This document shows positions 51,412-53,676 of a stretch of DNA of 64,000 nt, one piece after another; the stretch's first letter is position 1; the number at the start of each line of letters is the position of its first letter. Under the pieces are notes generated by a model. That model saw only the letters and a program-made list of their open reading frames with translations, made no database searches and had not been told where the DNA came from. The stretch lies in assembly GCA_044868145.1 (NCBI GenBank), contig JBIOWE010000004.1:203197-267196 (forward strand). The letters run 5' to 3'. This DNA comes from Patescibacteria group bacterium (GTDB lineage: Bacteria; Patescibacteriota; Patescibacteriia; UBA10025; JBIOWE01). Made by a program: the position numbers and the translations under genes.

Positions 51412-52921
51412 TTTTGAGAGTTTGATCCTAGCTCAGGATGAATGCTGGCGGCGTGTCTAAGGCATGCAAGTCGAACGGATCAGTGCCGCAAGGTGCTGAT
51501 GAGTGGCAAACGGGTGCGTAACACCTTGGTAACCTGCCCCCATCACGGCCATAACCCGCCGAAAGGCGGACTAATTGCCGATATTGTGCAGCGATGCTTT
51601 CGTTGCACGAAAGGTTTTCCGCAAGGAAAATCAGATGGGGAGGGGCCTAGGTACTATCAGCTTGTTGGTGAGGTAATGGCTCACCAAGGCGATGACGGTT
51701 AGCGGGTGTGAGAGCACGACCCGCCTCACTGGGACTGAGACACTGCCCAGACTCCTACGGGAGGCTGCAGTCAAGAATCTTCCCCAATGGCCGAAAGGCT
51801 GAGGGAGCGACGCCGCGTGCAGGAAGAAGCCCTTCGGGGTGTAAACTGCTTTTATTCGGGAAAAATTTCGATGGTACCGAAAGAATAAGGGGCTGCTAAC
51901 CTCGTGCCAGCAGCAGCGGTAAGACGAGGGCCCCAAGCATTATCCGGATTTACTGGGCGTAAAGAGCTCAACGGTGTTCTGACGCGTCTTTGGTTAAATG
52001 CCGAGGCTTAACCTTGGCACCGCCGAAGAAACGGTCAGAATTTGAGGGCAGAAAAGGCAGACGGAACTGCCGGTGTAGTAGTAAAATGCGTTAATATCGG
52101 CAGGAACACCAAAGGCGAAGGCAGTCTGCTGGGATGCACCTGACACTCTACGAGCGAAAGCGTGGGGAGCGATACGGATTAGATACCCGTGTAGTCCACG
52201 CCGTAAACGATGGGTACTAGACATTGGGAGTATCGACCCTCCCAGTGCCGTTCAAGCTAACGCGTTAAGTACCCCGCCTGGGGAGTACGGCCGCAAGGCT
52301 AAAACTCAAAGGAATTGACGGGAACCCGCACAAGCGGTGGAGCATGTGGTTCAATTCGACGATAACCGAGGAACCTTACCAGGGCTTGAAATGCTAGAAG
52401 TAGGCTGGGCCGAAAGGTTTGCCGACCGTTAAATCGGAGTCTAGCACAGGTGCTGCATGGCTGTCGTCAGCTCGTGTCGTGAGATTTCGGGTTAAGTCCT
52501 TTAACGAGCGCAACCCCTATGATATGTTGAATTTTCATATCAAACTGCCTCGGATAACGAGGAGGAAGGCGGGGATGACGTCAAGTCAGCATGGTCCTCT
52601 GACGCCCTGGGCTACACACGTGCTACAATGGGTAGGACAATGGGTTGCAAAACCGCAAGGTGAAGCTAATCCCATCAAACCTACCCCCAGTTCAGATTGG
52701 GGGCTGCAACTCGCCCCCATGAAGCCGGAATCGCTAGTAATCGCAGATCAGCTATGCTGCGGTGAATACGTTCTCGGGTTTTGTACACACCGCCCGTCAA
52801 GCCAGGAGAGTCGGGAATATCTGAAGGTTGCCTTTTGGCGACTCAAGGTAGGCTCGATGATAAGGGCTAAGTCGTAACAAGGCATGCGTAGCGGAAGCTG
52901 TGCATGGATCACCTCCTTTCT
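51412..52921 (+). rRNA. 16S ribosomal RNA (about 1.5 kb, complete)
   Basis: 5' end GAGAGTTTGATCCTAGCTCAG. 3' end GGATCACCTCCTTTCT. Internal universal blocks are present, with substitutions in the 515 region (GTGCCAGCAGCaGCGGTAAgAC). Confidence 0.95.
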
Positions 52922-53115
52922 AGGGAGAATAATGATTGTTTGTCGACATCAGCTCTGCTGATGACTTTAGTTCGTGGGCGTTCCCATTCTTGTCACATTT
53001 TCATTGCCAAAACCTCGACACGTTCGAGGTAAACCAAAACACATTGGCTTTACAATGCCAATGTTTTTTGTTAGCATGGAACAGTAATTGGCAAAATGAC
53101 CCCGCATAAAAATTT

Positions 53116-53190
53116 GGGTGCGTAGCTCAGTGGTAGAGCACGTCACTGATAATGACGGGGTCGGAGGTTCGATCCCTCCCGCACCCACCA
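53116..53190 (+). tRNA. tRNA-Ile (anticodon GAT), CCA encoded, in the 16S downstream spacer
   Basis: GGGTGCGTAGCTCAGTGGTAGAGCACGTCACTGATAATGACGGGGTCGGAGGTTCGATCCCTCCCGCACCCACCA. Anticodon loop CTGATAA. Confidence 0.9.
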
Positions 53191-53196
53191 ACCCCA

Positions 53197-53440
53197 AATT
53201 TTGTACGGGGCAAGTAATGACGAGGTTTAAGGTCTCAGGCCTGTCCCGTAAAAACGAGCATAGCGAATTTTGTGCGGGATTCGAATCCTGAGCCGCCCAC
53301 CGAGGGTGAAAAGAGCGCGCTTGCCCCGCAGGCGAGCGACGTAAAGTCGCGTTGCGACCACGTCGCTCTACGCGAAGCGAATTGTGCGGGGTCACTGATA
53401 ATGACGAGGTCGTCCCGCCAAGGCGGACCGTACCCACCAG
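53197..53440 (+). repeat. Three tRNA-Ile-derived degenerate repeats (AATTTTGTRCGGGG...TAATGACGAGGT) flanking a stem-loop-rich 150-nt insert that contains a GGATTCGAATCC T-loop-like palindrome
   Basis: Copies start at 53197, 53266 and 53379. The third reproduces the tRNA-Ile anticodon arm (GTCACTGATAATGAC) and 3' terminus (ACCCACCA) but has a non-tRNA hairpin in place of the T-arm. Strong hairpin GAGCGACG...CGTCGCTC at 53325-53369. Confidence 0.5.
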
Positions 53441-53467
53441 TGAGGATTATTATAAAAACCACAAAGT

Positions 53468-53539
53468 GCCGAGGTAGCTCAGTGGTAGAGCGCTGCCCTG
53501 AAGAGGCAGGCGTGGCCAGTTCGATTCTGGCCCTCGGCA
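53468..53539 (+). tRNA. tRNA-Phe (anticodon GAA), no CCA encoded
   Basis: GCCGAGGTAGCTCAGTGGTAGAGCGCTGCCCTGAAGAGGCAGGCGTGGCCAGTTCGATTCTGGCCCTCGGCA. Anticodon stem CTGCC/GGCAG, loop CTGAAGA. Confidence 0.85.
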
Positions 53540-53646
53540 CTTTGTGGTTCTTTGTTTAAGTAAGCATCTTCTCAATTCTGGCAGTTCATTGGGTCGAGGA
53601 GGCACCCCGACGTAAGGAGGGTAGCTTCGCAACTGTATAACAAAAA

Positions 53647-53676
53647 AGAGTGGGACTTTCCACTCTTTTCTTTATT
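53647..53676. terminator. Bidirectional intrinsic terminator (AGAGTGG-gacttt-CCACTCT) ending the 16S-tRNA transcription unit. No 23S gene follows
   Basis: A-run upstream and TTTTCTTTATTC downstream. The next feature is a convergent minus-strand CDS. Confidence 0.7.

Follow-up and report, generated by a model that had tools for sequence, protein, structure and literature searches.

The nearest known cases to the locus described here are integration-derived partial tRNA genes, in which integrase-bearing elements of 9-23 kb lie between the copies (van der Gulik et al., bioRxiv 10.1101/2022.07.05.498093), and the model for tRNA-Thr of Caldiarchaeum subterraneum, where a tRNA fragment stands beside a replacement tRNA of the same isoacceptor, an arrangement that has been blamed on insertion of a mobile element and is polymorphic between related genomes (Sugahara et al. 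2012, PMC3293823). Patescibacteria themselves are known to carry group I introns at position 35/36 of their tRNA genes, in a study where neither tRNA relics nor nesting are described (Nakagawa et al. 2026, PMC13011429). We analysed a stretch of 64,000 nucleotides (nt; the window) from a Patescibacteria group bacterium (GenBank assembly GCA_044868145.1, contig JBIOWE010000004.1, positions 203,197 to 267,196 of the forward strand), in which a 16S rRNA gene unlinked to any 23S gene is followed by tRNA-Ile(GAT), a spacer of 277 nt (53191-53467) and tRNA-Phe(GAA). We show here that this spacer holds what is left of two or more earlier tRNA-Ile genes, among which one hairpin module is present three times, and propose, with a probability of roughly 0.6, that it records serial replacement of tRNA-Ile by small tRNA-carrying inserts, with a GIY-YIG cassette as the candidate mover.

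The locus shares some features with each of these systems and departs from all of them. As with integration-derived partial genes, the partial copies can be mis-annotated as tRNAs (in the relative L114 one is called as tRNA-Val(AAC)), but the gap between copies is gene-free and only 0-300 nt long, 5' and 3' halves are nested, no core is duplicated, and GC-rich hairpins interrupt the relics. As in Caldiarchaeum, a tRNA fragment lies beside a replacement of the same isoacceptor; that case, however, is archaeal, with a 1.8-kb element that carries a recombinase and bulge-helix-bulge (BHB) introns in the new gene (PMC3293823), whereas here a bacterium is the host, the insert measures about 170 nt and has no open reading frame (ORF), and no splicing is implied. 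The group I introns (PMC13011429) share both the phylum and the unusual anticodon-loop position, whereas here position 35 is A, no intron model matches, the insert holds a whole tRNA and the interrupted gene is dead.

TrmD homologues place the window in Patescibacteria, with a best identity of only 55-57% to GTDB species representatives and no close genome among them; closer relatives (the L-numbered loci) were drawn from the protein database and a metagenome scan. All of them are distant, which makes the timing of events rough, and the closest one found, L083, has a 16S identity of 86.5% over the last 620 nt. A sequence-only reading of the same DNA had listed three decayed tRNA-Ile-like repeats in the 277-nt spacer; their derivation from tRNA-Ile is borne out by repeats and alignment, but the count is not, as there are two relic genes in three pieces. 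Within the spacer AATTTTGTRCGG occurs three times (at 53193, 53262 and 53376), and two stretches of tRNA-Ile have a copy there at the same offset of 249 nt: 22 nt of the anticodon arm, GTCACTGATAATGACGrGGTCG (21/22 identical), and 12 nt of the 3' end, CCGyACCCACCA (11/12). The anticodon-arm copy has a local alignment score of 39 against a shuffle mean of 13.1 (standard deviation 2.1), a score reached by none of 1000 shuffles, and that of the R1/R2 repeat is reached by one in 1000.

Relic 1, like every feature below unless a minus sign is given, lies on the forward strand, and spacer alignment with related genomes resolved it against L083 only. Its first part, relic 1a (53215-53239), corresponds, by gapped alignment to the intact tRNA-Ile of L083, to positions 36-53 of an older tRNA-Ile(GAT) and contains a 7-nt internal duplication; of 135 tRNAs compared, that L083 gene matches it best. 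Relic 1b (53280-53301; TTCGAATCCTGAGCCGCCCACC) provides positions 54-76 of the same older gene and is identical to the L083 tRNA-Ile at 20/21 positions (BLAST E=7.7e-4), whereas the similarity of this middle piece to the window's own tRNA-Ile is not significant and its acceptor strand, GCCGCCC, is unlike that of the present gene. When the 7-nt duplication and a 40-nt insertion between the two parts are set aside, 53215-53301 is identical at 38/39 nucleotides to positions 36-75 of the intact L083 gene, of which relic 1 is the orthologue. Downstream, the old trailer (GAGGGTGAAAAGAGCGCGC) and the third hairpin module (together 53302-53390) are colinear with the trailer and hairpin that follow the L083 tRNA-Ile, and the series of trailer (…AAAGAGCGCGCTTGCCCCGC…), variable hairpin and relic 2 has the same order 3' of that gene, with 132/146 aligned columns identical. 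Given the orthology of relic 1 and this colinearity, L083 would represent the state before the newest replacement.

Relic 2 (53391-53439) comprises positions 27-76 of a tRNA-Ile, matching at 21/22 nucleotides in the anticodon arm and 11/12 in the 3' acceptor strand with CCA. Its 16-nt T arm is exchanged for an unrelated hairpin of equal length (TCCCGCCAAGGCGGAC; 53413-53428) that agrees with the present tRNA at 4/16 positions, so that the foreign hairpin seen by the sequence-only reading in this 3'-half copy is real and fits 16 nt for 16 nt. As the flanks are about 94% identical around a core at chance level, without change of length, relic 2 is the product of a block swap and not of uniform decay. 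Its orthologue is the 3' copy at 14170-14253 of L083, and by this correspondence relic 2 appears to predate the split of the window and L083 lineages. None of the spacer pieces has a 5' acceptor strand or a D arm, and none is detected as a tRNA: ARAGORN reports only tRNA-Ile and tRNA-Phe, and the Rfam search of 52900-53720 at E<=10 returns the same two tRNAs, nothing more with the tRNA model, and no credible intron, riboswitch or small RNA family.

In all relic pieces position 44 is A (GACGAGG), as in the tRNA-Ile genes of relatives, while the present gene has G44 (GACGGGG); its T arm also differs from those of the relics, and its acceptor stem is GGGTGCG/CGCACCC against GCCGCCC in relic 1. 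On account of these three differences the present tRNA-Ile is best read as a newcomer.

The direct repeats in the spacer had been taken in the sequence-only reading as marks of a small insertion, and they do mark insertions: each copy of AATTTTGTRCGGGG pairs, as 3' arm of a hairpin, with a 5' arm reading …CCCCGC… or …TCCCG…, and each of these 3' arms abuts a tRNA breakpoint, at position 36 (module E1), 54 (E2) or 27 (E3). The left arm of E1 (TGACCCCGCATAAAAATTT; 53097-53115) is the leader strand of a stem enclosing tRNA-Ile (inverted repeats I4 and I7, and the fold) and is homologous to the left arm of a closed leader hairpin in L083; its right arm (CCCCAAATTTTGTACGGGGCAAG; 53192-53214), the first direct-repeat copy, ends where relic 1 starts, and E1 carries the present tRNA-Ile in its loop. 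E2 (53240-53279), with the second direct-repeat copy, is a 40-nt hairpin (CCTGTCCCG...GTGCGGGA) in the T-loop of relic 1, between G53 and T54, and its ends match those of a 37-nt hairpin (CTTGTCCCG...GTGCGGGA) that splits the L083 3' copy exactly at 35/36. E3 (TTGCCCCGC...GTGCGGGG, with an inner hairpin; 53321-53390) bears the third copy and stands directly before relic 2.

The module recurs beyond the window. Right junctions like that of E1 are found as 'TGTACGGCGGGCAGG^TAATGACGAGG' in L085 and 'CGGCGGGCAGG^TAACGTGG' in L212; a tRNA-Pro of L207 lies between GTCCCGCAC and GTGCGGGA arms inside an outer tRNA-Pro-like pseudogene; and the closed hairpin in the L083 tRNA-Ile leader, TTGCCCCGCAAAATTCC-TAAC-GGAATTAAGCGGGGCAAGG, has arms that resemble those round the window tRNA-Ile. 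The inverted-repeat ends, TG(Y)CCCGC on the left and GYGCGGGR on the right, are conserved in E1-E3, in three hairpins of L083 and in one of L207. Across all loci, CCCGC...GCGGG has 333 matches, of which 68 are no further than 300 nt from a tRNA, enriched 5.6-fold given that 3.7% of bases are that near. A genome-wide repeat of the repetitive extragenic palindrome (REP) or miniature inverted-repeat transposable element (MITE) kind was considered and rejected for want of many dispersed copies, the related pattern CCGCC-N3-6-GGCGG having only three exact matches in the 64 kb, one of them within the 16S gene.

To these parallels the relatives add one pair of empty and filled sites. L208 and L212 share synteny with the window, both in a Cys-Gly-Leu tRNA cluster beside genes for an inositol-phosphatase and a metallophosphatase and in the order MGMT-like gene, GIY-YIG gene, tRNA-Gly(TCC). 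Their tRNA-Ile(TAT) genes are orthologous, with homologous flanks on both sides (170/216 aligned columns for the spliced outer gene and flanks); the gene is uninterrupted in L208 and split exactly between positions 35 and 36 in L212. The L212 insert, of about 169 nt, holds an intact new tRNA-Ile(TAT), preceded by 44 nt and followed by 48 nt, whose acceptor stem differs (GGGTACG/CGTACCT); the flanks of this inner gene are unalignable, the ends of the insert resemble an inverted repeat (CCCGCCTGCC / GGCGGGCAGG), and the insertion shows no target-site duplication of the kind that would mark a MITE. The tRNA-Phe of L212 is nested like its tRNA-Ile. A GC-rich arm followed by T36-A37-A38 forms the right junction in the window, L085, L212 and L213 alike, as seen when L212 (…CGGCGGGCAGG^TAA…), the window (…ACGGGGCAAG^TAATGACG) and L085 (…ACGGCGGGCAGG^TAATGACG) are compared, and the same position 35/36 holds the 37-nt hairpin of L083 and the start of a tRNA-Ile copy in L002. 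We infer that the event in the window took place by the same mechanism as those in its relatives.

These sites bear on a reading without any mobile element, in which the pieces would stem from local tandem duplication of the tRNA-Ile region, or from slippage during its replication, and would then have decayed, with hairpins growing in place. tRNA arrays are hotspots of duplication, the repeated unit of tRNA 3' half and trailer arm does occur three times in tandem-like order, and the spacer is devoid of a mobility gene. Nevertheless such an origin is unlikely, given that relic 1 is closer to the L083 tRNA-Ile (38/39) than to the window's own (15/19 in the best block), with a different acceptor stem, that one junction sequence and position are shared by different genomes and by two isoacceptors, GAT and TAT, and that the ends of the hairpin inserts (CYTGTCCCG...GTGCGGGA) are conserved between the window and L083; moreover, the flanks of the inner tRNA of L212 are not copies of the outer ones, and tandem duplication therefore cannot explain that locus.

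The same pair, with the short distances between copies, speaks to the suggestion that the relics are scars of attachment (att) sites, left when integrase-bearing elements such as phages or integrative and conjugative elements duplicated the 3' part of tRNA-Ile and were later deleted. Williams 2002 is said to have found that anticodon-loop and T-loop breakpoints are preferred by tyrosine integrases; relic 2 starts at the 5' strand of the anticodon stem, and the window holds a complete and a partial tRNA copy in direct orientation, the partial 3' copy downstream of the intact gene being a known integration signature (bioRxiv 10.1101/2022.07.05.498093). We nonetheless find this origin quite unlikely: only 0-300 nt separate full and partial copies in every case (200 nt, non-coding, in the window), no integrase or transposase Pfam domain is present in 18 flanking ORFs (about 7-10 kb on each side; three are without a Pfam match), and upstream 5' fragments are as clear as downstream 3' fragments. 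The L208/L212 pair shows an entire tRNA inserted in simple linear fashion, without duplication of a core, whereas a circular tRNA-bearing element would yield two hybrid genes, which are not seen at L212, and scans of viral contigs for the new tRNA-Ile and the junction returned nothing relevant. The integration scar that the sequence-only reading had entertained thus finds, in its classical form with an integrase, nothing between the copies to sustain it. A phage origin of the newcomer was likewise tried and set aside: its 31-mer is absent from IMG/VR, and 13 matches to a degenerate junction there are chance hits in GC-rich phage genes.

An intron remnant, the other origin that had been raised, fares no better. 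Neither a group I nor a group II signal is found at E<=10, position 35 is A and not the U of a group I 5' splice site, and no 5' exon is detectable upstream in the window; RF00028 (group I) is absent at E<=10 from 52900-53720, although the same tool detects it in the 16S gene of L085. Inspected by eye, the L083 junctions, with 8 nt and 3 nt unpaired around a 9-bp stem, form no 3-4-3 BHB, and splicing is not required, since an intact copy is always found beside the interrupted one. A group I-like interruption is met elsewhere: at about 2500-2900 (-) of L163, a tRNA-Phe-like gene missed by ARAGORN is broken after CTGA in the anticodon loop by some 330 nt resembling a group I intron; the same locus has, upstream of tRNA-Ile, a 5' fragment with a TCCGCC-AACT-GGCGGA hairpin in its D-loop.

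Displaced tRNA pieces are common in these relatives. A scan of the 151 tRNAs in the collected loci for self-copies (at least 12 nt, at least 90% identical, within 500 nt, same strand) found partial copies near 21 of them, against 2-7 in five controls with mismatched flanks, and a stricter version found them near 13/135, against 0-2; many copy boundaries fall in the D-loop (13/14), the anticodon loop (35/36) or the T-loop (55-57). In L032, a full-length Val-like copy and a 5'-truncated Val copy carry the same 31-nt double hairpin in both T-loops, and a 3' copy of tRNA-Phe has a T-loop hairpin as well; in L002, the tRNA-Ile 3' copy begins at position 36; and in L083, the 5' fragment of an outer tRNA-Ile (GGGCGAT…) pairs with the acceptor strand of a 3' fragment (…ATCGCCC), with the intact gene nested between them. 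Nesting of this kind is found for Ile in L083, Pro in L207, and Ile and Phe in L212, while L101 has tRNAs only 7-18 nt apart and no relics. Wherever the region is readable an intact copy adjoins each relic, the exception being L085, where only fragments are found; because an intact copy is adjacent and the relics are not recognised as tRNAs, the relics would be dispensable.

Elsewhere in the window, a perfect copy of the last 20 nt of tRNA-Gly(GCC) (60571-60645), from T-loop to CCA, lies at 60396-60416 (-), 155 nt downstream of that gene, and is preceded by two 8-bp GC hairpins, CGACTGCC-GGT-GGCAGTCG and GCCCCGCC-GTT-GGCGGGGC. The Cys-Gly and Gly-Leu spacers of this cluster are 161 and 246 nt long in the window; L208 and L212 have 10-12 and 119-168 nt there.

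Free-standing GIY-YIG homing endonuclease genes are known to bring with them a copy of part of their host gene, as at atp6 of the fungal mitochondria of Allomyces and, for segB of T4, in a tRNA cluster. In the loci collected here, 10 of the 12 places with a small GIY-YIG ORF (Pfam PF01541) are no further than 300 nt from a tRNA, against 3.7% of bases so situated; these 10 amount to about six independent contexts. In L114, such an ORF begins 12 nt past the tRNA-Ile(GAT) behind the 16S gene and is followed by a 5'-truncated tRNA copy (2569-2632), whose 17-nt anticodon arm is swapped for a 17-nt hairpin (TCCCGATAACATCGGGA) and which ARAGORN calls tRNA-Val(AAC). In L170, the ORF stands between tRNA-Ala and a perfect copy of positions 44-73 of that tRNA. 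In L212, the 5' part of an old tRNA-Cys has hairpins in its D-loop and at 35/36, and a full GIY-YIG ORF behind it overlaps the start of the new tRNA-Cys; at the same tRNA-Cys site L208 retains only a 5'-truncated remnant of the ORF, so that presence/absence polymorphism of the cassette is seen between these two relatives, though not at the window locus. L114, L170 and tRNA-Cys of L212 resemble the known homing cassettes in having a small ORF next to or inside an essential gene, whose function is restored by a duplicated part while the old part is displaced; the differences are that the putative targets here are tRNA genes of bacterial chromosomes and that the ORF has been lost from the window spacer, if it was ever present. 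On these associations a GIY-YIG nuclease would be the driver of tRNA replacement.

The window also encodes a GIY-YIG protein of 75 amino acids (aa) at 55703-55930 (-), 134 nt upstream of tRNA-Gly(TCC) and after an MGMT-like gene with a DNA_binding_1 domain (56252-56602). Its homologues have 83-90 aa, and it may be truncated at the C terminus. The order of MGMT-like gene, GIY-YIG gene and tRNA-Gly is kept in L208, L210, L212 and L213, loci that were themselves retrieved through the GIY-YIG protein.

Taking these data together, we envisage that a small insert reached the anticodon-loop position 35/36 of the resident tRNA-Ile at least once. The insert would have been a complete tRNA-Ile in the loop of the GC-rich hairpin module, with arms CCCCGC...GCGGGG, and would at once have killed the resident gene and supplied its replacement. 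The old 3' part, relic 1, would have been displaced downstream and have later received the 40-nt copy of the module in its T-loop, while relic 2, probably already in the common ancestor with the closest relative, sits further downstream. Probably the relics are co-transcribed with the tRNAs and then discarded in processing, which the long leader-trailer stems round tRNA-Ile and tRNA-Phe probably guide. A selfish, site-specific element most likely drives the replacement; the GIY-YIG cassettes found in relatives between intact tRNA and displaced copy are the best candidates, and the window spacer would be an ORF-less residue of such events.

Several observations weigh against serial replacement in this form. 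The 5' half of the replaced gene is undetectable upstream of the present tRNA-Ile (p=0.98), and the window event may therefore have involved a deletion, or have exchanged all that lay upstream of position 36, instead of being a clean insertion. With the closed leader hairpin of L083 homologous to the arms round the window tRNA-Ile, both gain and loss of a tRNA are possible. CCCGC/GCGGG hairpins also occur as ordinary terminators near tRNAs, and part of the likeness among modules may be convergent. As to the mover, the spacer contains neither an ORF nor a GIY-YIG coding remnant detectable by tblastn with four GIY-YIG proteins, and the conserved position of the window GIY-YIG gene points to long residence rather than recent mobility. 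Finally, relic 2 has an anticodon arm identical in sequence to that of its L083 counterpart although the spacer around it is unalignable, which calls for gene conversion or selection and is unlike the behaviour of inert junk.

This identity would also suit relics and hairpins that are selected functional elements of the precursor RNA, acting as tRNA-like processing punctuation, as RNase III-type scaffolds or as an anticodon-arm decoy. The spacer is probably transcribed, with a promoter-like site before it and a terminator after it. At 57-59% GC it is richer than the spacer between 16S and tRNA-Ile, which has 41%; any of the three repeat arms can pair with the tRNA-Ile leader, folding of the 476-nt region gives z=-6.4, the leader being paired with the E3 arm, and the two arm swaps, of 16 nt in the window and 17 nt in L114, leave the length unchanged. 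Yet the spacer folded by itself does only modestly better than shuffles (z=-2.3) and matches no Rfam family, and the elements vary in number, position and content, with the L083 insert in the anticodon loop and L101 free of relics; gene conversion from the neighbouring functional gene can explain identical tRNA-like stretches, of which the data hold two orthologous copies in the case of relic 2. We therefore regard selected function as improbable, and retain serial replacement of tRNA-Ile by tRNA-carrying inserts as the preferred account.

A further step, which we take only tentatively and against the odds as we judge them, is to posit an undescribed selfish element: a hairpin cassette of about 120-170 nt, ORF-less or associated with GIY-YIG, that would carry a complete tRNA, insert at a loop of the cognate tRNA (typically at 35/36), kill and replace an essential single-copy gene and leave nested relics, with its module re-invading the dead copies. 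If this is true, such cassettes would parallel, in bacteria, the processes by which archaeal tRNA genes are proposed to have become fragmented. Among the papers searched, none describes nested tRNA relics or tRNA-associated GIY-YIG cassettes in Patescibacteria, nor did the search meet with an account of tRNA genes replaced in series by small tRNA-carrying inserts at tRNA loops.

The spacer and its counterparts in relatives are a record of fast turnover among essential tRNA genes present as single copies in very small genomes, with inserts that bring their own replacement, and offer a concrete, testable bacterial parallel to models of split or interrupted archaeal tRNA genes. They also draw attention to an abundant, uncharacterised class of GIY-YIG proteins of about 85 aa tied to tRNA genes. 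A practical consequence concerns annotation, as relics called as tRNAs, like the tRNA-Val(AAC) of L114, or as proteins distort tRNA inventories and gene counts of the candidate phyla radiation (CPR). An example of the latter is a 156-aa ORF antisense to tRNA-Ile and spacer (52967-53437 (-) of the window), called as a gene at 878-1348 of contig L001 in the public Logan assembly; it belongs to no Pfam family, overlaps RNA genes and is almost certainly spurious. Three ORFs overlap the spacer, none with a Pfam family, the best match being a holin model at E=0.026, under its cutoff.

The 16S rRNA gene itself (51410-52919) is complete and insertion-free, as the sequence-only reading had it, matching Rfam RF00177 (SSU_rRNA_bacteria) over model positions 1-1533 with 1417.8 bits. 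It is preceded by rpsP, a KH-domain gene, trmD and, just past trmD, a promoter-like site TTGACA-17-TACAAT (51119-51147) with 11/12 consensus matches, whose function is presumed from the consensus. Its unlinked state was also read correctly: no 23S gene lies within 1.5 kb of the 16S 3' end, the cluster is closed by a terminator and a convergent gene, and Rfam models of the large-subunit (LSU) and 5S rRNA have zero matches at the gathering threshold across the whole 64 kb, which puts any 23S gene no nearer than 51 kb upstream or 10 kb downstream. Brewer et al. (bioRxiv 10.1101/705046) name Patescibacteria as a clade whose rRNA genes are mostly or exclusively unlinked, and the window conforms in having no 23S within 1.5 kb, adding only the tRNA-Ile-led array behind 16S in this sub-lineage.

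The order trmD-16S, followed by tRNAs and no 23S, recurs in the independent genomes L002, L032 and L083. A metagenome scan with a clade-typical 16S 3'-end pattern gave 120 contigs, many of which have an ordinary 16S-Ile-Ala-23S order or 23S directly after 16S; about a dozen have a tRNA-Ile-led array behind 16S with neither tRNA-Ala nor a 23S motif, and in L101, L111, L144, L154, L159 and L207 this array reads 16S-Ile-(Met/Val)-Phe-Pro-Gly. The slot between Ile and Phe is thus filled in relatives by tRNA-Val, by tRNA-Met or by similar debris, and the earlier view of debris standing in place of tRNA-Ala and 23S does not hold: relatives with the same unlinked 16S carry Ile-(Val/Met)-Phe-Pro-Gly, and the debris is former tRNA-Ile. 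The substitutions noted in the 515F primer target are present, the site (51904-51925) reading GTGCCAGCAGCAGCGGTAAGAC with two differences from the usual GTGCCAGCAGCCGCGGTAATAC; its C-to-A change is common to 24 retrieved 16S genes and the exact variant is found in L083 as well. Both the unlinked 16S and the primer mismatch are ordinary traits of the lineage, the former heritable and ordinary in Patescibacteria rather than peculiar to this genome and the latter common to the relatives; being routine for the phylum, they matter less than the spacer. Insertions do occur in the 16S genes of relatives, as group I introns by Rfam in L085 (12314-12844) and L086 (4110-4640), and as ORF-bearing insertions near position 1400 in L002 (about 12400-13270) and L032 (about 14150-14940).

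An assembly artefact, whether a mis-join hiding the 23S gene or collapsed or chimeric repeats in the spacer, would undo these readings, and rRNA regions of metagenomes are often misassembled; Logan contigs from the same sample do break inside 16S. However, Logan contig L001 (SRR30692719) runs from the 3' part of 16S to beyond the convergent gene and is 100% identical over 52880-53700, though this product of a different assembler may derive from the same reads. The trmD-16S-tRNA-Ile-tRNA array without 23S in L002, L032 and L083, the dozen or so metagenome contigs with a 23S-free, tRNA-Ile-led array and the documented unlinking of rRNA genes (bioRxiv 10.1101/705046) argue in the same direction. 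With the second assembly identical, we take the spacer as real and an artefact as scarcely credible.

The gene order of 16S, tRNA-Ile, tRNA-Phe and terminator is as first described. The present tRNA-Ile(GAT) (53116-53190) is intact, with its CCA encoded (ARAGORN; Rfam tRNA, 74 bits), and tRNA-Phe(GAA) (53468-53540; ARAGORN, Rfam) ends without an encoded CCA (…CGGCACTTTG). That these genes form one operon from 16S to tRNA-Phe is unproven: a terminator-like hairpin with T-run (ACATTGGC…GCCAATGTTTTTTG), overlapping a promoter-like site, lies in the spacer between 16S and tRNA-Ile (53041-53077), and the motif 'hairpin-TTTTTTGTTA' is also found 135-186 nt past 16S in L083 and L111. This conserved hairpin may separate or attenuate the transcription of 16S and tRNAs. 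An inverted repeat search found a leader-trailer stem around tRNA-Phe (53454-53552; 21 nt per arm, 95% complementary) that overlaps the acceptor stem, and long stems extending the acceptor stem of functional tRNAs are seen at 16250-16350 of L032 and 20265-20370 of L083 as well, which suggests excision by a double-strand-specific RNase, as for rRNA. Behind tRNA-Phe, a hairpin of 11 bp (53644-53669) resembling an intrinsic terminator lies between an A-run and a T-run (the whole at 53644-53678) and, to judge from these two runs, can terminate transcription on both strands; a convergent gene for a 162-aa protein of no Pfam family (53679-54167 (-)) bounds the RNA gene cluster.

Two observations concern tRNA ends and anticodons. 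An encoded CCA terminates tRNA-Ile (53187-53190), relic 2 (53436-53439) and several Ile relics of L002, L083, L085 and L212, and is not found at tRNA-Phe (53538-53543). The usual bacterial way to read the codon served by a UAU anticodon is a CAT tRNA modified by TilS; the window encodes instead a tRNA-Ile with the anticodon TAT (30738-30809 (-)), free of flanking relics, and tRNA-Ile(TAT) genes are also present in L208, L212 and L213.

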